Notes: generated from the sequence alone by a model not told the origin. 40,419 nucleotides of DNA from an uncultured Gammaproteobacteria bacterium (GCA_964613625.1 CAZTIC010000003.1:1-40419); one strand, 5' to 3'. Shown: positions 1-13,496, counted from the first letter of the stretch. A program made the numbers and translations.

Positions 1-173
1 AGATTTTTTTCTGTTTTAGAAAATTTATTGTTTGCTATTAATATTTGATTATCATCATAAACTTTAAGAAATTTTAAATATATTATGTTTGGAACACCTT
101 CTTTTGTTGATGTTGACAAAATGTGTACTTCTTGATTATTAATAATATTTTGAATATGTTTTGGAATTTTCAT
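1..173 (-). CDS. Partial CDS (first 57 codons; continues past the window start), tentatively a PNPOx-like FMN-binding split-barrel family protein
   Basis: My own reverse translation from the ATG (complement of 171-173) gives MKIPKHIQNIINNQEVHILSTSTKEGVPNIIYLKFLKVYDDNQILIANNKFSKTEKN, open to the window edge. The pattern (K.G.PN ... DD..ILIANN..SKT..N) recalls pyridoxamine-5'-phosphate-oxidase-like proteins. It is absent from the track because it is truncated. Confidence 0.45.
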   Translation of the reverse strand, partial: MKIPKHIQNIINNQEVHILSTSTKEGVPNIIYLKFLKVYDDNQILIANNKFSKTEKN

Positions 174-243: not shown

Positions 244-344
244 ATTTCGTATAACATGTGCGTGTATGAGAAGTTTGTGAAGCAAATTTGGACGAAGACT
301 TTTGTAAAAAGTCGTAGTCTCATACACGTTGTTATGTGATGTAA
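244..344. repeat. Left palindromic module: ATTTCGTATAA (244-254) ... TTATGTGATGT (332-342) enclosing a long stem
   Basis: CGTGTATGAGA (261-271) is the exact reverse complement of TCTCATACACG (318-328). An inner hairpin GACTTTT/AAAAGTC is present. The outer 11-mers belong to the same family as those at 1145, 1311 and 1366. Confidence 0.55.
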
Positions 345-392
345 TGAAAAATTCTTTTTCGCTGATAAGCGAAAATTAATTGAAATATTTTA
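321..392. repeat. Left arm of the imperfect inverted repeat flanking ORF 427-1077
   Basis: The reverse complement of 321-392 aligns with 1096-1163. The first 17 nt are identical (TAAAATATTTCAATTAA). Both arms then carry a small GATA-loop hairpin (TCGCT-GATA-AGCGA versus TTGCTC-GATA-GAGCAA), a TTTTTC run and TCACATAA. Identity is roughly three-quarters by eye. Confidence 0.7.
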
Positions 393-426
393 GTAATTAA
401 AGAATTTAAATAAGCGAACAAGTTTT

Positions 427-1077
427 TCAAGCATCAAAAAGATTGTCAGTATTTCTTGGTAAGCCTAGATTGAAAAAATCACATTTAAATTTGTATACTA
501 TTAAAAATATCGTTATAAATAATATTAAAAATACAAGAGTATAACCAAAATATTTTAATACTTTCAATTCTCCACTCTCTTTAGCTTTTTCATTGGAAAT
601 ATAAGTTGTTTTATCTTTAAATATTTGTGTAATTTCATCAAATCGATTAACTGGAATAAAAATTGGAATATATTTCGTAAACAGTAGCCCCTTTTTAATT
701 AAATAAATAATATTAAATTTTGGAGAAGAGTAAAATTTATGAAGCTCCGGGACAATATTTGATGTTAATATATTTTTATCAAGTAGTATTTTATCATTTT
801 TTTTATCATAGCATAAGTTTAAATTATTATTTTCAATAGTATGTTTTGCATATTTTTTTTTAAATATCAGTTGAATATATCGTGCATGAGGATCTTTCTT
901 TCTTAAAAACAATTTAAGAAAAAAGCTAAGTGATAAAGTAATAAAAATAAAAAATGAACCGCCAGGATTAACTCCCGCAAATGTTAACAAAAAAGAAAAC
1001 ATTGATATCACCAAGATAATCATGATGATTTTTGGTACTGATGATATGTAATATGGTGCTTGCCATGAATGTGTCAT
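427..1077 (-). CDS. Hypothetical membrane protein (2 N-terminal and 1 C-terminal predicted TM helices)
   Basis: 216-aa ORF with hydrophobic stretches (IIMIILVISMFSFLLTFAGV, FFIFITLSLSFFLKLF, GYTLVFLILFITIFLIVY). I recognise no catalytic motif. It is bracketed by ~70-bp inverted repeats. Confidence 0.6.
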   Translation of the reverse strand: MTHSWQAPYYISSVPKIIMIILVISMFSFLLTFAGVNPGGSFFIFITLSLSFFLKLFLRKKDPHARYIQLIFKKKYAKHTIENNNLNLCYDKKNDKILLDKNILTSNIVPELHKFYSSPKFNIIYLIKKGLLFTKYIPIFIPVNRFDEITQIFKDKTTYISNEKAKESGELKVLKYFGYTLVFLILFITIFLIVYKFKCDFFNLGLPRNTDNLFDA

Positions 1078-1095
1078 ATGTATATTTTTAATTAA

Positions 1096-1163
1096 TAAAA
1101 TATTTCAATTAAATTTGCTCGATAGAGCAAAAGAGTTTTTCGTTATTTCACATAATGTGTGTG
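1096..1163. repeat. Right arm of the imperfect inverted repeat flanking ORF 427-1077
   Basis: See the left arm (321-392). The repeat runs from TAAAATATTTCAATTAA (1096-1112) to TTTCACATAATGTGTGTG. Confidence 0.7.
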
Positions 1164-1365
1164 CTTGATCCGAAGTTGGCAGATCGAAAACGGAGCGGAG
1201 CGGAGTTTTTGAGCTGACAATTTTGGATAAGCTGTGTTATGCGATGTGCGCGAGTTCGAGCGATAGCGAGGCTCGCGTGCAACGCATGGCACGGCTGGTA
1301 AGCACACACATTATGCAAAATGTTAGTGAGTGCTCCTGTAGCGATAGCGGAAGGAGTGCGAGTGC

Positions 1366-1391
1366 ATTTTGCATAACAAGTTATATGCGAA
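1366..1391. other. Candidate Xer-type core recombination site (dif-like): ATTTTGCATAA-CAAG-TTATATGCGAA
   Basis: The arms have dyad symmetry (..GCATAA / TTATATGC..) and lie 64 bp upstream of the Xer-like recombinase start. The left arm resembles the complement of the E. coli dif XerD arm (ATTTAACATAA, from memory). The central spacing is ambiguous (4-8 nt depending on how the arms are defined). Confidence 0.3.
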
Positions 1392-1406
1392 CTTGTTGTT
1401 TTTTTA
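1375..1406 (+). terminator. Rho-independent terminator (plus strand)
   Basis: AACAAGTT (1375-1382) pairs perfectly with AACTTGTT (1390-1397) around the loop ATATGCG, followed by GTTTTTTT. No plus-strand CDS lies upstream, which implies an unannotated plus-strand transcript or an insulator. Confidence 0.6.
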
Positions 1407-1454
1407 TTTAAAATTAGTTAAAATAAAGATAATTATTTCTAATCAGAAAGCTTT

Positions 1455-2303
1455 ATGAATGGAAATTATCAATATCCTAGTAAGGACCCTATGATTAAAC
1501 TTGGTCAAGAGCTAAGAATTAGAGGATTTTCTAAACAAACAATCAAAGCTTATCTTTATTATAACAAAGAATTGTTAAAATTTGCAAATAAATCACCAAA
1601 AGAAATAACAAAGCAAGATATAAAAGACTATATTGATTGTTTGATTGGATTAGGTAGGTCAGAATCTACAATAAACCTATTGATTAATTCTTTGAAATTT
1701 TATTACGAAAATGTTTTACAAAGAAGTTTCTTTGTTCCAAAAATTGGAATTATTCGTCCAAAAAAGTCTAAGAAATTGCCAGTTGTATTATCAAAAGAAG
1801 AAGTAGTGCAAATGATTAATGTATTAGATAATATCAAACATAAGCTAATGATACAGATTATGTATGGATCTGGTCTCAGAGTGAGCGAAGTAGTTAATTT
1901 CCAAATCAATAATATAGACTTTAGTCGAAAAATTATTCATATAAAAAATGCTAAAGGGAAAAAAGATAGGATTAGTATAATATCAGAAACTACTTTAAAT
2001 AATATTGAAAAATATTTACGAGAATGTCAACCTCTCGTTTTTTTATTTGAAAGTCATATAGCTGGTAGTAAGATTACTACAAGGACAGTACAAAAAATTA
2101 TTTTTGAATCAGCGAAAAAAGCTAAAATATTAAAAGATGTTAGTGCGCATAGTTTACGGCATAGTTTCGCTACGTCTTTACTAGAAAACGGTACTGATAT
2201 AAGGTATATACAGGAGCTATTGGGTCACGCTCGACTCGAAACAACACAAATTTATACCAAAGTAGCTACAAATAAATTGGAAGGGATTGAGAGTCCTATT
2301 TAG
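1455..2303 (+). CDS. Tyrosine site-specific recombinase, XerC/XerD-like
   Basis: 282 aa with an N-terminal SAM-like domain (SKQTIKAYLYYNKELLKF). The catalytic signature is GLRVSEV, HSLRHSFATSLLENGTDIRYIQELLGHARLETTQIYTKV (R, H-x-x-R, H, Y). Confidence 0.85.
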   Translation: MNGNYQYPSKDPMIKLGQELRIRGFSKQTIKAYLYYNKELLKFANKSPKEITKQDIKDYIDCLIGLGRSESTINLLINSLKFYYENVLQRSFFVPKIGIIRPKKSKKLPVVLSKEEVVQMINVLDNIKHKLMIQIMYGSGLRVSEVVNFQINNIDFSRKIIHIKNAKGKKDRISIISETTLNNIEKYLRECQPLVFLFESHIAGSKITTRTVQKIIFESAKKAKILKDVSAHSLRHSFATSLLENGTDIRYIQELLGHARLETTQIYTKVATNKLEGIESPI

Positions 2304-2325: not shown

Positions 2326-3327
2326 ATGAAGTTAATAGAAATAAAAGATAAAAATATATATAACAATTTTGTTTCTGGGCAAAAACATAGTCAGTTTTTG
2401 CAGTCTTGGGAGTGGGGAGAATTTAATCAGAATATAGGTCTTAGAACAAAGGTGTTGGGATTGGAAAAAAATGGAGAATTAATAATGGGTTTAACTTTGT
2501 TAAGGAAAAATTTGGGTTTTGGTAAAAGTTATTATTATGTGCCAAGAATTGGGGTAAAAAATTTAAATGAAATACAATTAAATTTTCTTTTTGAAGAAAT
2601 TAGAAAAATTGCAAAACAAGAAGATGTTTTGTTTTTGCGCTTCGAACCTAGAAGTGAGCTGTCAAAAGTCAATTGTCAAAAGTCAATTGTCAAAACGCTT
2701 GACGTTCAACCTAGTAAGACTTTAATTCTCGATATCTCTAAATCTGAAGAGGAGCTACTAAAAAATTTCAAACAAAAGACTAGATACAATATTCGCTTGG
2801 CAGAGAAGAAGGGTGTTGTGGTGCGAGAAATGAAAGATGATAATGATTTTGAAAATTGGTGGAAGGTGATGGAAGAGACAAAAGACCGAGATGGATTTAG
2901 ATTGCATTCTAAAAAATATTATCGTGAAATGTTAACCTCACCCCAACCCTCTCTTTATAAAGGAGAGGGGGCTAATATAATAATTAAATTATTATTGGCT
3001 GAGTATAAAGACGAAATAATCGCAGGAAATATTGTAGCTATGTTTGGTGATATGGCAACCTATGTTCATGGTGCTTCTTCTAATAAATTTCGGAATGTAA
3101 TGGCGCCTTATTTACTTCAGTGGGAAACAATAAAAATAGCGAAAGAAACAGATATTAAGTATTATGATTTCTATGGTATTGATGAACAAAAATGGCCGGG
3201 AGTTACTAGATTTAAATTAGGCTTTAACGGCGAAGAAATAAATTATCCAGGTACATTTGATTTAGTTTTTGATATGAAGTCTTATGGTTTGTATAAATTG
3301 ATTAGAAAAATTAGACGAATGTTTTAA
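2326..3327 (+). CDS. FemAB-family peptidoglycan interpeptide-bridge aminoacyltransferase (FemX/MurM-like)
   Basis: 333 aa. Family-typical features are the N-terminal FLQSWEWGEF, KTRYNIRLAEKKGV, and C-terminal YVHGASS..FRNVMAPYLLQWE. It contains an in-frame GC-rich repeat at 2936-2972. Confidence 0.7.
   Translation: MKLIEIKDKNIYNNFVSGQKHSQFLQSWEWGEFNQNIGLRTKVLGLEKNGELIMGLTLLRKNLGFGKSYYYVPRIGVKNLNEIQLNFLFEEIRKIAKQEDVLFLRFEPRSELSKVNCQKSIVKTLDVQPSKTLILDISKSEEELLKNFKQKTRYNIRLAEKKGVVVREMKDDNDFENWWKVMEETKDRDGFRLHSKKYYREMLTSPQPSLYKGEGANIIIKLLLAEYKDEIIAGNIVAMFGDMATYVHGASSNKFRNVMAPYLLQWETIKIAKETDIKYYDFYGIDEQKWPGVTRFKLGFNGEEINYPGTFDLVFDMKSYGLYKLIRKIRRMF
2936..2972 (+). repeat. CCTCACCCCAACCC-hairpin unit (family U) embedded in frame in the FemAB-like CDS
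   Basis: The sequence is CCTCACCCCAACCCTCTCTTTATAAAGGAGAGGGGGC, with the hairpin CCCTCTC/GAGAGGG. It translates as SPQPSLYKGEGA. The same unit occurs intergenically at 4063, 20331 and 24329, and inverted at 4110 and 24242. Confidence 0.8.
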
Positions 3328-4018: not shown

Positions 4019-4062
4019 GCTTAAACTTTTTCTTTTTTATAGAAGAATATTAATGAATATAT

Positions 4063-4142
4063 CCCTCACCCCAGCCTTCTCCCGATTGGGAGAAGGGGTA
4101 AAATATATTCCCTCTCCTTTGCAGGAGAGGGTTAGGGTGAGG
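4063..4142. repeat. Composite palindromic element: two family-U units tail to tail
   Basis: The first unit is CCCTCACCCCAGCC-TTCTCCC-gatt-GGGAGAA-GGGG (4063-4098). The second is CCCTCTCC-tttgca-GGAGAGGG-TTAGGGTGAGG (4110-4142). The outer arms are mutually complementary. The element ends 11 nt before the murE-like ATG and supplies a GAGGT that could act as an SD. Confidence 0.8.
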
Positions 4143-4153
4143 TAGAAATAATT

Positions 4154-5994: not shown

Positions 5995-8900
5995 ATGACT
6001 AAAAGAACATTTAGCAACAGCCCTCTAAAAATTATGAATAAGAATATTGAAAGAAAATTCTTTATAGATAAAGTGCAGGCCATGGATATGCCTGATTTGA
6101 TAGAAGTTCAGAAGGATTCTTATAATTGGTTTCTGGAGGAAGGTTTGAAGGAATTATTCGAAGAGATCTCACCTATTACTGATTTTATTGGCAGAGACTT
6201 AGAATTGTATTTTGAAGACCATTATTTGGATGAACCAAAGTTTGATGAAATACAAAGTAGGGCTAAGAATACAACCTATGAATCTCCTTTGCGCGTAAAA
6301 GCTAGATTGGTTAATAAAAGAACCAAAGAGACTGCAACTCAAGAAGTATTTTTGGGAGATTTTCCATTAATGACTAAGAGCGGAACGTTTATTGTAAATG
6401 GAAATGAAAGAGTTGTTGTGTCTCAGTTGATAAGAAGCGCTGGTGTGATATTTACTTCTGATTTTGTAAAAGGAAAGAAAACTTACGGAGCAAAAATTAT
6501 TCCAAATAGAGGAGCTTGGCTTGAAGTAGAAACCGATGCTAATAAAGTTATCTGGGTTAGAATTGATAGAAAAAGAAAAGTAGCCATTACATCATTGCTT
6601 CGTGCTTTTGGATTTGAAACTGATGAAGAAATAAAGGCCTTATTCAAAGATGTTGATTTGATTAAAAATGATGAAGAAGTTAGTTATATTGATGCTACTA
6701 TCGGAAAAGATATTGCCAAGAACGAAGCCGAAGGTTTAAAAGAAGTATACAAAAGAATACGTCCAGGTGATTTAGCTGCCACTGAAAATGCTCGTCAATT
6801 AATTCACTCTATGTTTTTTAGATTTGATAGATATGATTTTGGTAGAGTTGGTAGATACAAGTTTAACAGAAGATTTGGTTTTGATATTAAAAATAATAAA
6901 GAAAATAGAATACTTAGAAAAGAAGATTTAATTGCTGTTATATCAGAAGTTATTCGATTGAATATAACTCAAGAGAAAGAAGACGACATAGATCATTTGG
7001 GTAATAGAAGAGTAAGAGCGATTGGAGAGCTTATTCAAAATAGATTTAGAGTGGGCTTGGCTAGAATGGAAAGAATAGTAAAGGACAGAATGAGTACAGC
7101 GGATACTATAACATTAAACCCAAACAAGCTTGTGAATGCTAGACCGGTTATAAGTGTTGTGAAGGAATTTTTTATGTCTTCTCAATTGTCTCAGTTTATG
7201 GACCAGACAAATCCTTTGGCAGAGCTTGAGCACAAAAGAAGATTATCAGCTATGGGACCAGGTGGTTTAACTAGGGAAAGGGCCGGCTTTGATGTTCGTG
7301 ATGTACATACAACTCATTATGGAAGAATTTGTCCTATTGCTACCCCAGAGGGACCAAACATTGGATTGGTTGGTCATTTGGCTAGTTATACAAAATTAAA
7401 TACATATGGTTTTTTGGAAGCGCCTTATAGATTGGTATTGCATGATTTAGAAGTAGATTCAAAAGAGTTAATTGGAAAAATTGTACGTGAAGATATTTGT
7501 GAAATCAAAAAATTAGCTGAAAATCAAGAAGGTAAAAAACAATTATTGTACTCAAATATTTCAAGTGATCAAAAAGGAAAGGTAATTATTAGGGCTGGTG
7601 AAAAAATTGATTTACGAGTAGCTAAATTTATTAAAGAAAAAATAAATAATAAAGTTTTGATTCCAATAAAACCAGTTATCACTGATGAGATTCATTATTT
7701 GGATGCGTTTACTGAGGAGAGATATATTTCAACTGCTTTTACAACTTCTGTTGATGACAACGGTTCATTTTTGGTTGATAAATGTGAAGGTAGAAGATAT
7801 GGGCAGCCTACTACAGTATTGGTAACTACCGTAGATTATGTTGGCGTAGCTGCGAATCAGATTATTTCAGTCGCAACTTCTCTGATCCCGTTTATGGAAC
7901 ACAATGATGGACAACGTTCTTTGATGGGAACAAACATGCAACGTCAAGCAGTACCATTACTTGTTAGTGAAGCTCCAGTGGTTGGTACAGGAGTTGAGAG
8001 AAGAGCGGCTATAGATTCTGGTCACGCTATTATTGCTGAAGAGGGTGGAGTAATAAGTAAGGTTGATGCCTCAAAGATTGAAGTAAAAAATAAAAAAGGT
8101 GAAATTACACAATATGATGTAACTAAATTTTTACGATCAAATTCATCTACTTGTATAAATCAACGTCCGATAGTTGAAGTAGATCAAAAAATAGAAAAAG
8201 GAGACGTATTATCTGATGGGCCTTCTATTGATAATGGTGAATTAGCTTTAGGAAAGAATGTTTTAGTCGCTTTTATGACTTGGGAAGGTTATAACTATGA
8301 AGATGCTATTATTATTTCTGAACGTTTGGTTAGTGATGATGTTTACTCTTCTATACATATTGAAGACTACATTGTCGATGTTCGCGATACAAAACTTGGA
8401 CCAGAACTCATAACAAATGATATTTCAAATATTTCTGAAGAAAAATTAAAGAATTTGGATGAAGAAGGCATTGTAAGAGTTGGTGCTGAAGTATTGTCCG
8501 GAGGTATATTGGTCGGAAAGATTACTCCAAAAGGAGAAACAGAGCTATCAGCTGAAGAAAAACTACTTCGAGCTATTTTTGGTGAAAAAGCCAAGGACGT
8601 ACGTGATTCATCTCTATATCTAGAGCATGGCGAACATGGAAAAGTGGTTGATATAAAAATATTTTCAAGAGAAGATGGTGATAGATTGGCTGCTGGAGTT
8701 CTAAAATCAATTCATGTTTCAGTCGCGAATTTGAGAAAGATTCAAGTTGGAGATAAAATGGCAGGGCGTCACGGGAACAAAGGTGTTATCTCAAAGATAG
8801 TATCTGCCGAGGACCTACCCTACCTAGAAGATGGAACTCCTGTTGATATTATTTTATCTCCTTTAGGGATTATATCTAGAATGAACTTGGGTCAATTATT

Positions 8901-9522
8901 TGAGACTCATTTAGGTTTTGCTGCCAAGAAATTGGGCTACAACATAGCTACTCCTCCTTTAAATGGTCTAACAGAACAACAAATAAAAGATGAGCTTAAA
9001 AAAGCTGGATTACCTCTCGATGGTAAGTCAGTTTTGTATGATGGAAAAACTGGTAGAAAATTTGATAATAAAGTAGCGGTTGGATATAAATACATGTTGA
9101 AATTGAATCACATGGTTGATGATAAGGTTCACCAAAGATCAATTGGACCTTACTCATTAATTACACAACAGCCTTTGGGAGGAAAGGCTCAATTTGGTGG
9201 ACAGCGTTTCGGAGAAATGGAAGTGTGGGCCCTAGAAGGATATGGAGCCGCTCATATTTTGCAGGAAATATTAACCATCAAATCAGATGATGTTCCTGGA
9301 AGAAGCAAGGCTTATGAATCGATCATTAAAGGTGAAGAAATTACCAAGCTTAATGTCCCAGAATCATTTAATGTTTTGGTTCGAGAGTTAAAGGGACTTT
9401 GTTTGGATGTAAAATTGTTGGGACAAAAAGAAAAAGTTAGTGAGGAAGACAAAGATAATCAAGCTGAAAAAAAGGAAACAGTAGAGGAGAAAAAAGAAGA
9501 AGAGTTGAAAGAGGAAAAATAA
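5995..9522 (+). CDS. rpoB: DNA-directed RNA polymerase subunit beta
   Basis: 1175 aa with canonical blocks PDLIEVQKDSYNWFL, GTFIVNGNERVVVSQL, RRLSAMGPGGLTRERAGFDVRDVH, NMQRQAVPL, GRHGNKGVISKI and GGQRFGEMEVWALEGYGAA. The start could instead be the Met at 6034. Confidence 0.97.
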   Translation: MTKRTFSNSPLKIMNKNIERKFFIDKVQAMDMPDLIEVQKDSYNWFLEEGLKELFEEISPITDFIGRDLELYFEDHYLDEPKFDEIQSRAKNTTYESPLRVKARLVNKRTKETATQEVFLGDFPLMTKSGTFIVNGNERVVVSQLIRSAGVIFTSDFVKGKKTYGAKIIPNRGAWLEVETDANKVIWVRIDRKRKVAITSLLRAFGFETDEEIKALFKDVDLIKNDEEVSYIDATIGKDIAKNEAEGLKEVYKRIRPGDLAATENARQLIHSMFFRFDRYDFGRVGRYKFNRRFGFDIKNNKENRILRKEDLIAVISEVIRLNITQEKEDDIDHLGNRRVRAIGELIQNRFRVGLARMERIVKDRMSTADTITLNPNKLVNARPVISVVKEFFMSSQLSQFMDQTNPLAELEHKRRLSAMGPGGLTRERAGFDVRDVHTTHYGRICPIATPEGPNIGLVGHLASYTKLNTYGFLEAPYRLVLHDLEVDSKELIGKIVREDICEIKKLAENQEGKKQLLYSNISSDQKGKVIIRAGEKIDLRVAKFIKEKINNKVLIPIKPVITDEIHYLDAFTEERYISTAFTTSVDDNGSFLVDKCEGRRYGQPTTVLVTTVDYVGVAANQIISVATSLIPFMEHNDGQRSLMGTNMQRQAVPLLVSEAPVVGTGVERRAAIDSGHAIIAEEGGVISKVDASKIEVKNKKGEITQYDVTKFLRSNSSTCINQRPIVEVDQKIEKGDVLSDGPSIDNGELALGKNVLVAFMTWEGYNYEDAIIISERLVSDDVYSSIHIEDYIVDVRDTKLGPELITNDISNISEEKLKNLDEEGIVRVGAEVLSGGILVGKITPKGETELSAEEKLLRAIFGEKAKDVRDSSLYLEHGEHGKVVDIKIFSREDGDRLAAGVLKSIHVSVANLRKIQVGDKMAGRHGNKGVISKIVSAEDLPYLEDGTPVDIILSPLGIISRMNLGQLFETHLGFAAKKLGYNIATPPLNGLTEQQIKDELKKAGLPLDGKSVLYDGKTGRKFDNKVAVGYKYMLKLNHMVDDKVHQRSIGPYSLITQQPLGGKAQFGGQRFGEMEVWALEGYGAAHILQEILTIKSDDVPGRSKAYESIIKGEEITKLNVPESFNVLVRELKGLCLDVKLLGQKEKVSEEDKDNQAEKKETVEEKKEEELKEEK

Positions 9523-9554
9523 AATAATTTAAATTATAAAATTATCTTAAATAT

Positions 9555-12500
9555 ATGTTAAATCCAATAAAAACAACAGATTTTGATGCTATTAAATTAA
9601 AATTAGCCTCACCTGAAGAAATATTATCTTGGTCTCATGGAGAAATAGTTAGACCTGAGACTATTAATTATCGTACTCAAAAACCGGAAAAGGACGGTTT
9701 GTTTTGTGAAAAAATATTTGGTCCGTCGAAAGATTGGGAGTGTTATTGTGGAAAGTATAAAAAAATAAGGTATAAAGGAATTGTGTGTGACAAATGTGGA
9801 GTTGAGGTGACAAGAAGCGCTGTTAGGCGAGAAAGAATGGGTCATATTGCACTACAAACTCCTTGTACGCATATTTGGTTCCTTCGCGGTATTTCTAGCA
9901 AGATTGGCTTAATGCTTGGTTTGTCAATGCAAATATTAGAAAAGGTTGTATATTTTGCTAGCTTTATTATTACTGATATAGATGAAGATTTGAAGAACTC
10001 AACTATAGATCAAATCAAACAAGAATTTAAATCAAAGAAGAAGCAAATAAGCAATGATTTTGCTAATCAGGCAAATGAGATTAAAAACAAGAAAGGAAAG
10101 TTGTTACAAGACGGAAAAGAAGAAAAAGAAATAGAAAAAATTATATCTTCTGAAGTTGATGCTCTAGATATTGCAAAAGAAGAAAAATTGGATAAATTAA
10201 ATGATGCTTTTGATCAAGCTCAAAAAGAACTCAAAGATTTGAAAGTTAATATGATTATTTCAGAAGCAATATATCAAAATTTGAGTTTGAAATACGGTCA
10301 TATTTTTGAAGCTGGTATTGGGGCTGAAGCTATTAGGAAATTATTAGAAAGAATCGACCTAGATCAATCAGTGAGTGAATTGGAAGAAGAATTAGAAACA
10401 TGTATTGATTCAAAAAAAGAAAAACTAATCAAAAGATTAAAGTTATTAAAAAGTCTTCGAGGAAATAATATTAGACCTGAGTGGATGATACTTTATATGA
10501 TACCTGTTATTCCACCGGATCTTCGACCGATGGTGGCTCTTGATGGAGGTAGATTTGCGGCTTCAGATTTAAATGATTTATACAGAAGAGTTATTAATAG
10601 AAACAATCGTCTCAAACAACTTGTAGAATTAAACGCTCCAGAAGTAATATGTAGAAATGAAAAGAGGATGCTTCAAGAAGCAGTTGATGCTTTATTTGAT
10701 AATTCTTCAAGACATTCAAAAACTGTAACAGCGTCTACTGGTCAAAAAAGACAATTAAAATCATTAGCTGATTCACTAAAGGGTAAGCAAGGAAGATTTC
10801 GACAGAATTTGCTTGGAAAAAGAACTGATTATTCAGGCAGAAGTGTTATTGTGGTGAATCCTAAATTAAACCTAGATCAATGTGGTCTGCCGAAGGTTAT
10901 GGCCTTGGAATTATTCAAGCCATTTATAATTAGCAAGTTAATTAAAAACGAAACAGTTCATAATGTTCGAAGTGCTTCTAGATATATTGAAGCTGGACAT
11001 GAAGATGTTTGGGATATATTAGAAGATATAGTTAAAGAGGCCTATGTTTTATTGAATCGTGCTCCTACTCTTCATAGACTTGGTATTCAGGCTTTTAAAC
11101 CAATATTAATTGAAGGTAAAGCACTTCAGATTCATCCAATGGTTTGTGCGGCTTTTAATGCTGACTTTGACGGTGATCAAATGGCCGTTCATGTACCTCT
11201 AACAAAAGAGGCCGTAAATGAAGCTAAGAATATAATGCTTTCTTCTAAGAATTTATTAAAGCCTGCTACTGGAGATCCGGTTGTAGCTCCAGGGCAAGAT
11301 ATTGTTTGGGGTGCTTTTTACCTCACGCAAGAATTATCAGACGAGCAAGATAAGGAAAAAATAAAAAGTTTTTCAGATAAAACCGAGGCTTTATTAGCCT
11401 ATGAACTTGGATACTTCAAATTACATGATTTGATTAATGTTAGAATAAATAAAGAAGTGTTACAAACAACAGTTGGCAGAATAATATTCAATAGTTTTCT
11501 TCCTGAAAAATTACAGTTCTTAAATGAATTAGTTGGAAAGAATACTCTAAAAGATTTGGTTAAGGATAGTTTACGATATTATGGAAAAGAAGAAACAGCT
11601 GTATTTGTTGATGAGTTAAAAAATAAAAGTTTTGAGTATATCACAAAGAGTGGCTTGTCATTTGGCATGGATGATTTGCCAAGTCTAGAAGAAAAGGATG
11701 TAAAGATTCAGGAAACTGCTTCAGAGGTGGAGATTATTCAAGATCAATACGAGGAAGGTTTGTTAACTGAGAGTGAAAGATATAGTAAAGTGATTGAGTT
11801 ATGGACCAATACCAAAGAAAAAGTTACTGACATTTGTAAGGATAGCTTAACAATATATAATCCTGTTCATAGTATGGTTGAATCTGGTGCTCGTGGATCT
11901 TGGGCTCAGTTAACTCAGATTTTGGGAATGAAAGGTTTGGTTACATCTCCTTCTGGTGATATTATTGAGCTGCCTGTAAAAGGTAATTTCAAAAGAGGAT
12001 TTGAAGTATTAGAGTACTTTATTTCTACTCACGGTGTTCGTAAAGGTTTATCAGATACCGCTCTTCGTACTGCTAACGCTGGTTACTTAACTAGACGTTT
12101 GGTTGATGTGGCTCAAGATATTATTATCACTGAAGATGATTGTAAAGAAAAAGATGGCGTGCTTATCACAAAGGAAGAAAGCGAAGACATGGGGGAGACA
12201 ATTATAAAGAGAATGGCTGGAAGATATTTAGCGAAAGATTTAAAAGATGAAAATAAAAAATTATTAGTAAAAGCAGGTGAGTTAATTACTGAAGATGTGA
12301 TTGATAAGATAAAAGACAAGAAAATTAACGAAGCCTACATTAGATCAACTTTGACTTGTAAATTGAGCAGAGGAGTTTGTGTAAAATGCTACGGATATGA
12401 TTTGGGACACAATGCGCCTGTTAAACTTGGTACAGCTGTGGGTATTATTGCGGCTCAATCAATCGGTGAACCTGGAACTCAGTTGACTATGAGAACCTTT

Positions 12501-13496
12501 CATACCGGTGGTGTAGCTGGAAGTGAAGATATTACTCAAGGCTTGCCTCGTGTTGAAGAAATTTTTGAAACACGTCCACCAAAGAAAAAAGCTCTTATTT
12601 CTGATGTTGATGGTAAAGTAACCATAGAAGTTGGAGAAAGAACCATAGAGGATGAAAGTGGAAAAACAGTAGTTGTGAGCAATCCTCAAGTAAAGGTTCT
12701 AAAGATCGAGTATAAAGGCACTGATGTTGATAAATATTCTATCAAAGAATTTACTAACTCTCTCAAGCTAAAAGCAAAAGAGAAAAGAGAGCTTAAATCT
12801 AAAATTTTAGTTAAAGACGGAGATAAGGTAAGTAAAGGAGCTGAGCTATTTTTTGTGGGTGATCAAGCGGAAGTTGCTAAAAAATCAGGAATCGTAAATG
12901 TAGATAGCGAGATTGTAAAGATTGAAGTTAATAAAAACAAAACCAGAGAATATATTATTTCAAAGGGCACTGGAATATTAGTTGAAGACGGAGAAAGTGT
13001 TACCAAAGGAACGCAGTTAACTGAAGGAAGTCTTGATTTGCGACAGTTGTATAAATTAAGAAACATGCTGGAAGCTCAAAAATATATTATCAAAGAAATT
13101 CAACATGTTTATTCTTCACAAGGTCAACCTTTAAATGACAAGCATATTGAGATCATAACTAAACAGATGTTCTCAAGATATTTGATTACAGACTCGGGCG
13201 ATACCGATTTATTACCTGGTGAAATCGCAGAGGAGTCAGTACTCCAAAGAGGAAATAAAGGCGCTAAGAAGCCAGCCAAGACTGAAAGATTGTTAATGGG
13301 TATCACCAAGGCTTCGTTAACAACTGATAGCTTCTTGTCAGCTGCTTCATTTCAAGAAACTGCTAGAGTATTAATTGATGCGGCTGTTAGCGGTAAGATT
13401 GATTATCTAGAGGGATTAAAGGAAAATGTTATTATTGGTAGATTAATTCCAGCTGGAACTGGTTATAAAGGTAAGATTGAGAGAAAGGTTTACTAA
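9555..13496 (+). CDS. rpoC: DNA-directed RNA polymerase subunit beta'
   Basis: 1313 aa with the zinc finger CYCGKYKKIRYKGIVCDKCGVEV, the catalytic NADFDGDQM, then RAPTLHRLGIQAF and a trigger-loop region GEPGTQLTMRTFHTGG. Confidence 0.97.
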   Translation: MLNPIKTTDFDAIKLKLASPEEILSWSHGEIVRPETINYRTQKPEKDGLFCEKIFGPSKDWECYCGKYKKIRYKGIVCDKCGVEVTRSAVRRERMGHIALQTPCTHIWFLRGISSKIGLMLGLSMQILEKVVYFASFIITDIDEDLKNSTIDQIKQEFKSKKKQISNDFANQANEIKNKKGKLLQDGKEEKEIEKIISSEVDALDIAKEEKLDKLNDAFDQAQKELKDLKVNMIISEAIYQNLSLKYGHIFEAGIGAEAIRKLLERIDLDQSVSELEEELETCIDSKKEKLIKRLKLLKSLRGNNIRPEWMILYMIPVIPPDLRPMVALDGGRFAASDLNDLYRRVINRNNRLKQLVELNAPEVICRNEKRMLQEAVDALFDNSSRHSKTVTASTGQKRQLKSLADSLKGKQGRFRQNLLGKRTDYSGRSVIVVNPKLNLDQCGLPKVMALELFKPFIISKLIKNETVHNVRSASRYIEAGHEDVWDILEDIVKEAYVLLNRAPTLHRLGIQAFKPILIEGKALQIHPMVCAAFNADFDGDQMAVHVPLTKEAVNEAKNIMLSSKNLLKPATGDPVVAPGQDIVWGAFYLTQELSDEQDKEKIKSFSDKTEALLAYELGYFKLHDLINVRINKEVLQTTVGRIIFNSFLPEKLQFLNELVGKNTLKDLVKDSLRYYGKEETAVFVDELKNKSFEYITKSGLSFGMDDLPSLEEKDVKIQETASEVEIIQDQYEEGLLTESERYSKVIELWTNTKEKVTDICKDSLTIYNPVHSMVESGARGSWAQLTQILGMKGLVTSPSGDIIELPVKGNFKRGFEVLEYFISTHGVRKGLSDTALRTANAGYLTRRLVDVAQDIIITEDDCKEKDGVLITKEESEDMGETIIKRMAGRYLAKDLKDENKKLLVKAGELITEDVIDKIKDKKINEAYIRSTLTCKLSRGVCVKCYGYDLGHNAPVKLGTAVGIIAAQSIGEPGTQLTMRTFHTGGVAGSEDITQGLPRVEEIFETRPPKKKALISDVDGKVTIEVGERTIEDESGKTVVVSNPQVKVLKIEYKGTDVDKYSIKEFTNSLKLKAKEKRELKSKILVKDGDKVSKGAELFFVGDQAEVAKKSGIVNVDSEIVKIEVNKNKTREYIISKGTGILVEDGESVTKGTQLTEGSLDLRQLYKLRNMLEAQKYIIKEIQHVYSSQGQPLNDKHIEIITKQMFSRYLITDSGDTDLLPGEIAEESVLQRGNKGAKKPAKTERLLMGITKASLTTDSFLSAASFQETARVLIDAAVSGKIDYLEGLKENVIIGRLIPAGTGYKGKIERKVY

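Follow-up and report, generated by a model that had tools for sequence, protein, structure and literature searches.

A candidate integron-like gene-cassette array beside an insertion-less Xer-type recombinase gene in a Patescibacteria bacterium

Introduction

The first 1.45 kb of a 40,419-nt stretch of AT-rich chromosomal DNA (GCA_964613625.1 CAZTIC010000003.1:1-40419; 33% GC; the whole stretch is called the window in the following) lie directly 5' of a gene for a 282-amino-acid tyrosine recombinase (1455-2303, + strand). This region is probably the recombinase-proximal end of an integron-like gene-cassette array with a Xer-type integrase that is devoid of the integron-specific insertion, a reading to which we assign a probability of roughly 70%. 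Its architecture is evident from comparison of sequences and comprises a conserved site next to the recombinase gene, a hairpin family with covariation, a strand bias, restriction of the hairpins to one side and one orientation, defined cassette boundaries and insertion polymorphism.

Integron integrases are thought to be derived from Xer-like enzymes through gain of the I2 helix, which reads attC sites. The integration of CTX phage is the only reaction resembling cassette recombination, and whether attC sites existed before the I2 domain or the domain before the sites has been described as a chicken-and-egg question (Escudero et al., PMC4792948). An insertion-less Xer-type enzyme coupled to arrays of attC-like folded sites makes this question of origin testable. 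A Xer-related 'Cand' subgroup of recombinases from candidate phyla has been listed with no associated elements described (Smyshlyaev et al., PMC8138268), and among archaeal integrons, attC clusters that lack an integrase have been reported to form the majority (Ghaly et al., PMC9668308). In the full-text literature, with subscription-only papers outside the search, we found no account of such arrays in the candidate phyla radiation (CPR) or of an insertion-less integron integrase.

Results

The host of the window is a Patescibacteria/CPR bacterium: the nearest homologues of the recombinase are found in Falkowbacteria, Parcubacteria and other Patescibacteria, and rpoB/rpoC lie at 5995-13496. 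Another assembly of the same genome (L131; related loci are given as L numbers where needed) is identical over 1292/1292 nt and adds 9.6 kb on the left, so that about 50 kb of this genome were covered in all.

The original prediction described six copies of an 11-mer, ATTTYRYATAA, in alternating orientation upstream of the recombinase gene and read them as dif-like half-sites of a chromosomal dif locus. Inspection of the sequence placed all six copies exactly where they had been reported, alternating in orientation, with those at 332-342 and 1381-1391 being degenerate. Exact matches within the array start at 244, 1145, 1311 (- strand) and 1366. Across the 40-kb window, the motif is found 7 times against an expectation of 1.41, a number reached in none of 100 shuffles (0/100), and four of these seven matches fall within 244-1376, while the others (7386, 14007, 15645) are intragenic and look like chance. 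Two looser motifs, ATTTYNNNTAAY and RTTRNNYRATGT, were discarded as non-specific in AT-rich DNA, in contrast to the structure-based model described below. The 11-mers are therefore real and non-random, but they are hairpin arms and parts of one dif-like site instead of free-standing dif half-sites: four of them form the outer arms of two structured hairpins (244-342 and 1145-1321), and the last two belong to a single 28-bp site at 1366-1393.

This 28-mer (+ strand) is a candidate functional equivalent of attI. It consists of ATTTTGCATAA (1366-1376), the spacer CAAGTT (1377-1382) and ATATGCGAACT (1383-1393) and lies 64 bp upstream of the recombinase gene; an 11-4-11 dyad with a CAAG spacer, as proposed before, had to be replaced by this better 11-6-11 parse with a spacer of 6 bp. 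On the minus strand it reads AGTTCGCATAT-AACTTG-TTATGCAAAAT. When this strand is compared with the E. coli dif site, GGTGCGCATAA-TGTATA-TTATGTTAAAT, as quoted in the original prediction and verified in NC_000913.3, the two arms agree at 8/11 and 9/11 positions. The 28-mer thus has the two-arm 11-6-11 architecture of dif.

Alignment of orthologous upstream regions bore out the proposal that the recombinase-proximal dyad is a true conserved recombination-type site. In six species, whose recombinase orthologues share 60-73% amino acid identity, the 130 nt 5' of the start codon hold the block [variable arm]-C[A/T]A[G/T]TT-ATAT[G/A]CGAACTT[G/A]TTG-N8-TT[T/A]AAAATTAGTTAAAAT. Scanning metagenomes with this block yielded 30 further loci, each with an arm of the ATTTC-NNN-TAAC type followed by the fixed half, whereas the sequences further upstream are unrelated among the loci. 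The site and the promoter-like block are thus shared by about 36 other loci, over which the spacer reads C[A/T]A[G/T]T[T/A]. Fixed within the 28-mer are the gene-side arm (1383-1393) and most of the 6-bp centre. As the comparison of loci shows, the other arm (1366-1376) is cassette-derived and comes from the most recently inserted cassette. Between the 28-mer and the start codon, the leader and promoter-like block of the recombinase gene (1394-1454, + strand), with ATTTAAAATTAGTTAAAAT at 1406-1424, is invariant across loci.

The second assembly of the window's genome, L131, stops inside the hairpin at 1145-1321 (window position 1292), and half of the metagenome contigs (15/30) break off no more than 150 nt from the site. 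We considered these contig ends as a sign of strain variation and set them aside as ambiguous, because a 60-nt block shared by co-occurring species would itself break assemblies. The strongly conserved site appears to break metagenome assemblies, be it through the conserved block, cassette heterogeneity or both.

Beside the Thermodesulfobacterium recombinase gene (L005, 5975-6005), two inverted copies of the fixed arm, ATATACGAAC-A-GTTCGCATAT, are present besides the insertion site, which recalls the extra integrase-binding repeats of attI sites.

A position at the chromosome terminus, as the original prediction had suggested, is not borne out by the GC skew: the backbone has a skew of +0.315 to the left of the locus and +0.272 to its right (L131 plus window), without a switch. 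Backbone genes have the same orientation (+) on both sides (ruvA on the left, the recombinase gene on the right), and the skew around a related locus (L085) shows no switch either (+0.104 and +0.088). Within the roughly 8-12 kb of flank analyzed on each side, the lack of a skew inversion argues against a terminus dif.

The recombinase itself belongs to the XerA family, scoring 236.7 bits with NF040815 (NCBIfam, XerA type; cut-off 220). Scores with the integron integrase models were below the respective cut-offs, with 208 against 265 for TIGR02249, where the match is split in two pieces, and 131 against 435 for PRK15417. The best PDB matches are the XerA structures of Pyrococcus abyssi (4a8e, E 3.6e-45) and Thermoplasma acidophilum (5hxy). 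When aligned to the Vibrio integrase IntI4 (2a3v), residues 17-179 and 210-282 of the query correspond to 10-172 and 245-317, so that about 42 residues are missing; for IntI1, 214 query residues span 253 of the integrase, which leaves a gap of about 39. Judged by these alignments, the IntI-specific insertion (I2 helix, around patch III) is absent. The catalytic residues R-K-H-R-H-Y are invariant in an alignment of 23 orthologues. Orthologues with 60-73% identity are very numerous; a scan of species-representative genomes with the recombinase alignment returned relatives of at most 50% identity among the matches listed, and a look-up of the exact sequence retrieved no record, while a cassette protein led to the second assembly of this genome.

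The two hairpins upstream of the 28-mer belong to one family. Hairpin H1 (244-342, + strand) is the predicted attC-like folded site that ends the cassette of the gene at 427-1077. It is built from an outer arm at 244-254 (ATTTCGTATAA), C255, a bulge at 256-259, an inner helix at about 260-270/318-328 and the second outer arm at 331-342 (GTTATGTGATGT). Folded as DNA, the region 240-346 reaches -18.8 kcal/mol on the + strand (z -4.9) versus -14.9 on the - strand. Hairpin H2 (1145-1321, + strand), a Y-shaped three-way junction, is the predicted folded site of the first cassette, which has no open reading frame. Its basal stem pairs 1145-1166 with 1300-1321, and the internal elements GAAGTT and AATTTTGG fit the family consensus. 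The region 1141-1325 folds with -53.2 kcal/mol on the + strand (z -10.3) versus -39.0 on its complement, the less stable fold of the latter pointing to G.T pairs on the + strand.

Read along the + strand, the 5' part of the family consists of ATTTC-NNN-TAAC, GT[A/T]T, an inner stem of 10-12 nt, GAAGTT and a hairpin; the 3' part consists of A[A/T]TTGGG, a further hairpin, the complementary inner stem, a T and GTT-NNN-[C/T]GATGT. In the outer 11-bp box, ATTTC-NNN-TAA pairs with TTA-NNN-GATGT, including a conserved T.G wobble and a T.T mismatch. The inner box is conserved in its pairing and partly in its sequence (ATAT...G-AAGTT), and the inner arm together with GAAGTT (e.g. ATATCTGAAGTT) resembles the fixed arm of the 28-mer, ATATGCGAACTT. 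The tip is variable and Y-shaped. Once folded, the strand shows in its 3' half the inner arm (…ATAT), then 6 nt and then TTA-NNN-GATGT, spaced 11-6-11 as in the 28-mer; opposite this six-position centre, the 5' half has about three extra unpaired bases. Moreover, the outer arms of the hairpins equal the variable arm of the conserved 28-mer.

To search for further copies, we used a covariance model (R1) trained on seven hairpin copies, with the species-representative scan set serving again as negative/positive background. In CPR loci, the R1 matches are without exception located 5' of the recombinase gene and share one orientation. The 30 metagenome loci gave 32/32 matches on the array side and none downstream (about 70 kb summed). 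The window contains two matches only, H1 (240-346, 101 bits) and an alternative match within H2 (1141-1251, 31 bits). Over 36 distinct copies, pairing in the inner helix amounts to 98%, and 8/11 of its pairs show compensatory changes; its covariation score of 0.416 compares with 0.135 in shuffles (0/500 reach 0.416) and at most 0.066 in slid controls. In the outer helix, the T.G (U.G) wobble is kept in 32/34 copies and the adjacent position is unpaired in 27/34. Nearly all copies (34/36, p = 2e-8) fold better on the strand opposite to the cassette genes. Of the features of attC sites, the hairpins show R and L boxes, AAC/GTT, asymmetry in the centre, variation at the tip and a preference for folding of the bottom strand; canonical extrahelical bases in the L box were not seen, and R1 does not detect class 1 attC sites. 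Rfam at gathering thresholds gave no match in the whole window, and in E-value mode on 1-1500 it yielded chance-level matches only, so that a known RNA family was rejected.

A second 11-6-11 dyad lies inside H2 at 1220-1247, ATTTTGGATAA-GCTGTG-TTATGCGATGT, with a right arm that fits the inner-arm consensus perfectly. Nesting or duplication of elements may have given rise to H2.

The proposed analogy with the pdif modules of Acinetobacter found no support at the internal sites. Instead of complete duplex 28-mers they contain a single conserved arm; the second arm is off the duplex spacing and is conserved as pairing and not as sequence, so that the 11-6-11 arrangement arises only in the folded + strand.

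Relatives of the window differ by whole modules exactly at the 11-mers, which had been proposed as a test, in two comparisons. L125 stems from a related organism with a recombinase region of 88-96% nucleotide identity to the window. It corresponds to window positions 1262-1378 at 100% identity up to GCATTTTGCATAAC (GCATAAC) and carries an extra cassette of 627 nt exactly at ...CATAAC|AAGTT.... The inserted cassette begins with the bulge and an inner stem, holds a 70-aa gene in the loop, closes the inner stem and ends with ATTTCGTACAAC, which is followed by AAGTTATATGCGAACTT. L001 and L002 share the same recombinase, the same first cassette and its hairpin, and their sequences part at ...|CTAAC. 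Variation among related loci consisted of insertion or replacement of whole cassettes, and no inverted variants were seen.

Positions 1-117 of L125 (reverse complement) are 100% identical to the window, in contrast to only about 88% for the adjacent region of the recombinase gene (732-958). This suggests either a recent transfer of a cassette between lineages or a chimeric contig.

A further line of evidence comes from the cassette ends. When the inner arm plus 24 nt was compared with the reverse complement of the recombinase-proximal arm of the same cassette, 11/15 cassettes matched at 18-22/24 positions, whereas the same inner arms match their hairpin partner in the array at 8-14/24 positions only. 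This complementarity of a cassette start to its own inverse core, which is also a feature of integron cassettes, reaches up to about 70 nt. For the first cassette, the arm at 1311-1321 is complementary at 11/11 positions to its own cassette start (1366-1376) but at 9/11 to its hairpin partner (1145-1155); with 12-mers the values are 11/12 and 10/12. Such a pattern is expected of a former circle with one long hairpin that was opened inside the stem, and it would place the crossover at or beside TAA^C on the + strand (1376/1377), i.e. G^TT on the cassette strand. For integron cassettes, the crossover point has classically been argued from complementarity of this kind. The L125 insertion and the divergence of L001 and L002 fall at ...TAAC|, the exact nucleotide being ambiguous by 1-4 nt; the site beside the recombinase gene is attI-like in having a crossover of the G^TT type.

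In the window, the own-start complementarity takes the form of an inverted repeat of about 70 bp around the gene at 427-1077. Its left copy (332-401) includes a small terminator-like hairpin at 356-375; the right copy (1087-1155) is the start of the 427-1077 cassette and ends in the arm 1145-1155 (ATTTCACATAA). The repeat pairs at 93% and 81%. The modules between the 11-mers are indeed discrete and mobile, as predicted; this repeat had been overlooked. In the predicted circular form of the cassette, the left copy would lengthen the stem of H1, and the circular junction would read, on the coding strand, ...TCTCATACACGCACATG joined to TTATGTGAAATAACGAAAAAC....

With L131, the array can be followed to its outer end. 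From left to right it comprises ruvA (+), a gene for a 244-aa protein (-), hairpin H0, the gene of a PNPOx-like protein (-), H1, a gene for a 216-aa protein (-), H2, a 44-nt hairpin, the 28-mer and the recombinase gene (+). All long contigs examined have housekeeping genes downstream of the recombinase gene, on its own strand, and small or accessory genes upstream of it, on the opposite strand; 23/25 cassette genes point away from the recombinase gene. The cassette content is of the accessory type, including HicAB, a type I restriction-modification system (a 7-kb unit), methyltransferases, NUDIX and radical SAM/SPASM proteins, a metallophosphoesterase, an AAA ATPase and small proteins of no known function. 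No common Pc promoter was identified in the arrays. Autonomous expression of the cassettes is suggested by their 60-80-nt leaders, by terminator-like hairpins and by the TTGACA box and ribosome-binding site that at least one cassette possesses (L125).

Two cases of genes inside the hairpin loop, between the inner stems, were noticed: a hicA/antitoxin pair in L001 (3829-4403) and the 70-aa gene of L125 (118-699 on the reverse complement), which has its own TTGACA-type promoter and a strong ribosome-binding site. Genes can hence occupy either side of the recombination stem.

The combination of the hairpin family with its GAAGTT and AATTTGG elements, a matching site and an insertion-less recombinase of the NF040815 type extends beyond the window's relatives. 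It was found in a Peregrinibacteria genome and also in Thermodesulfobacterium and two Spirochaetota, in which the recombinase gene faces the array. A similar site adjoins a Flavobacterium homologue.

Taken together, we propose that each cassette was formerly a circle with zero to few genes, usually directed away from the recombinase gene, and one long imperfect hairpin. Folding of the + strand would recreate the geometry of the 28-mer in each hairpin and thereby could allow its recognition by the recombinase. By analogy with attC x attI recombination in integrons and with the integration of CTX phage by XerCD, we infer that the 282-aa protein catalyzes the reaction on a single-stranded substrate: it would pair the folded hairpin with the double-stranded 28-mer and exchange a single strand at TAA^C, and the intermediate would be resolved by replication. 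New cassettes would enter beside the recombinase gene and displace the older ones outward.

Discussion

Among the known systems, the integron fits the locus better on account of the single insertion site by a divergent recombinase gene and the polar, co-oriented cassettes with folded ends. Like integrons, in particular sedentary chromosomal ones, the array lies divergent from the recombinase gene, with mostly co-oriented cassettes and one adjoining insertion site. Each cassette ends in one imperfect palindrome, which is composed of outer (R) and inner (L) boxes, includes AAC/GTT triplets, is unpaired at its centre and varies at its tip; the crossover position corresponds to G^TT, with the first bases of a cassette pairing with its own inverse core; the best-folding strand is opposite to the cassette genes; and accessory and toxin-antitoxin genes are carried. 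The differences are also substantial. The enzyme is without the I2 helix and scores as XerA, and a plain dif-like 28-mer serves as the insertion site. With 11-12 nt, the outer box resembles a XerD arm. Asymmetry is provided by a 3-nt central bulge and the T.T/T.G positions of the outer box, and not by L-box bases that are extrahelical. Y-shaped junctions are conserved at the tips, stems often run 24-70 nt past the R box, and genes may lie in the loop with their own promoters. As the integrase insertion is absent and model R1 misses class 1 attC sites, we do not file the system as an integron.

Several observations weigh against the integron-like array. In four of the 15 cassettes (4/15) the complementarity to the own start is lacking, and no distal hairpin is recognizable for the last cassette of the window's array, that of the 244-aa gene. 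The in-loop genes and own promoters of L001 (3829-4403) and L125 are unlike typical integron cassettes. In IntI, the insertion that is missing here recognizes extrahelical attC bases and prevents exchange of the second strand (PMC4792948). No canonical extrahelical bases were seen in the L boxes or inner helices. R1 found no significant attC match in a class 1 integron, for which reason we make no claim that the hairpins are attC sites in the sense of a sequence family. Finally, the covariation by itself fits folded DNA and folded antisense RNA alike.

The most closely related alternative, which we regard as unlikely, takes the 28-mer for the dif site of the chromosome and the recombinase for the housekeeping enzyme of dimer resolution, with cassettes that would be parasites of the kind of integrative mobile elements exploiting Xer (IMEX; cf. 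CTX, TLC and the gonococcal island) piled up at dif. It would agree with the XerA membership above a curated cut-off, with an 11-6-11 site sharing 17/22 arm positions with E. coli dif and with the strong conservation and partial synteny of the protein in CPR lineages, which would point to vertical inheritance. Furthermore, xerA and dif form a single module in some archaea (PMC5357621), and a Xer enzyme without I2 recombines the folded single strand of CTX phage (PMC4792948). The cassettes are without recombinases and bounded by dif-arm-like sequences, which by itself does not identify their target as the host dif. The skew does not switch at the locus, neither in the window's own genome, where gene orientation does not switch either, nor in L085. 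In addition, the cassettes are non-autonomous, form a polar array and share one site family matched to the enzyme, and the same system occurs with the recombinase gene reversed in Spirochaetota and Thermodesulfobacterium. Both phyla are expected to possess ordinary XerC/D. Mechanistically this alternative overlaps with the integron-like array, the main difference being the primary role of the enzyme.

Far less probable is recombination between ordinary duplex sites, in the manner of pdif modules or invertible segments, with the recombinase inverting or excising the DNA between them. The alternating orientation of the sites and the 70-bp inverted repeat around the gene at 427-1077 could be read this way, and small tyrosine recombinases commonly adjoin invertible segments, but the internal sites have no second arm at 6-bp spacing and keep that arm as pairing, no inverted variants occur among related loci, and a folding strand bias is unexpected for duplex sites. 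It is highly improbable that the hairpins are terminators, repetitive extragenic palindrome (REP)-like repeats or small RNA genes that merely happen to lie near a recombinase gene. It is true that the hairpins follow genes at their 3' ends, that small terminator-like hairpins occur and that the genome has other GC-rich palindromes (e.g. 4060-4145). However, all loci have the elements on a single side of the recombinase gene, the variable arm of the 28-mer is the same as the outer arms of the hairpins, the arms coincide exactly with cassette boundaries and with the L125 insertion, the better-folding strand is antisense to the cassette genes, and no Rfam family matches. We give the least credence to an ordinary integron missed by annotation pipelines. 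The layout is identical to that of a class 1 integron (L130), AAC...GTT core triplets are present, with many cores fitting RYYYAAC/GTTRRRY (e.g. GCCTAAC...GTTAGGC), and the NCBI family is named 'site-specific tyrosine recombinase/integron integrase'; against this stand the missing IntI insertion (gaps of about 42 aa to IntI4 and about 39 aa to IntI1), the sub-threshold scores with TIGR02249 and PRK15417, and the class 1 attC sites that escape the hairpin model.

Having weighed these alternatives, we compare the integron-like array with other Xer systems. It resembles the integration of CTX-type IMEX at dif by XerCD in that a Xer enzyme without I2 acts on a folded, dif-mimicking single strand and a duplex dif (PMC4792948, PMC5357621), that one strand is exchanged and replication resolves the product, and that elements accumulate in tandem at the site; for the array, this reaction is predicted by analogy. 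The CTX case differs in that phages and islands hijack a housekeeping enzyme at the terminus, whereas here minimal cassettes of one site family adjoin a site beside the recombinase gene, without a skew switch and with hairpins that have conserved unpaired features. The systems XerA/dif, XerS/difSL and XerH/difH have in common with the array a single recombinase, an 11-6-11 site and sometimes a gene-adjacent position, and they include the closest relatives of the enzyme (4a8e, 5hxy). Their sites, in contrast, resolve chromosome dimers at the skew inversion, and no cassette arrays have been described for them, whereas in the array the site has one arm that changes with the adjoining cassette. 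The pdif modules of Acinetobacter likewise have Xer-type sites in alternating orientation bounding gene modules, in which toxin-antitoxin genes are common. They differ by complete duplex 28-mers that are served by the host XerC/D and scattered on plasmids, with no adjacent dedicated recombinase gene and no hairpin covariation.

As a tentative generalization, for which the odds seem somewhat short of even, the locus could represent a widespread class of platforms in Patescibacteria/CPR, Peregrinibacteria, Thermodesulfobacteriota and Spirochaetota, with a XerA-type enzyme that never gained or has lost I2, a dif-like attI and dif-mimicking hairpins. Such a class could be the missing intermediate from Xer/dif, or from a CTX-like reaction, to the integron. 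If so, folded sites of the attC type would be possible without the IntI-specific domain, and part of the integrase-less attC clusters reported in uncultivated lineages might be accounted for. CPR bacteria, whose mechanisms of gene flux are poorly known, would possess a dedicated gene-capture device with cargo that includes defence and toxin-antitoxin genes. Integron finders that require the IntI insertion would miss such platforms or call them integrase-less attC clusters.

Additional features of the arrays

The outermost gene of the window (1-173, - strand) is the 5' part of the gene of the third cassette, the remainder lying left of the window. The complete gene is present in L131 and encodes a 158-aa protein of the PNPOx_N family (PF01243 match). 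The gene at 427-1077 (- strand) encodes a predicted membrane protein of 216 aa without family assignment, for which the Pfam and NCBIfam searches gave no match. Its only detectable relative (P0122, 49% identity) is part of a different integrative element, in which direct repeats of about 250 bp with the 3' part of a tRNA gene flank P0122 (L134, 2440-2690 and 3640-3920). Mobility of the 216-aa cassette between arrays was considered and is unsupported, as the sole relative sits in this tRNA-fragment direct-repeat element. The body of the first cassette, which is free of open reading frames, is the GC-rich hairpin of 44 nt at 1322-1365 (+ strand).

In several species, a leader of about 50 nt (…TTTTAAAACAATTGGGCGATAGCCCAAAAAAGAAAAGGAATA-TTTC…) adjoins the outer cassette arm (L085 7195-7256, L088 1-51, L093 5795-5849, L107 and L021 at about 4330), with a partner, TATTCCTTTTCTTTTTT-CCGACAGCAGTCGG-…, at the opposite end of the cassette. 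Possible roles are a backbone common to the cassettes or an accessory region for binding. In L001, the distal end of the array has a GC-rich, seemingly structured non-coding stretch (3130-3300) beside a DUF2061 gene, which may be a small RNA gene.

Outside the array, the window contains a GC-rich Y-shaped palindrome at 4060-4145 (CCCTCACCCC...GGGTGAGG, with two internal hairpins) between a methyltransferase and a Mur-ligase gene, which has no match to the hairpin model. Related palindromes with GGGTTAGGGGTGA occur in L088 (240-290), in L093 (4030-4080) and beside ruvA in L131 (about 2530-2600), and they may constitute a second repeat family of these genomes.

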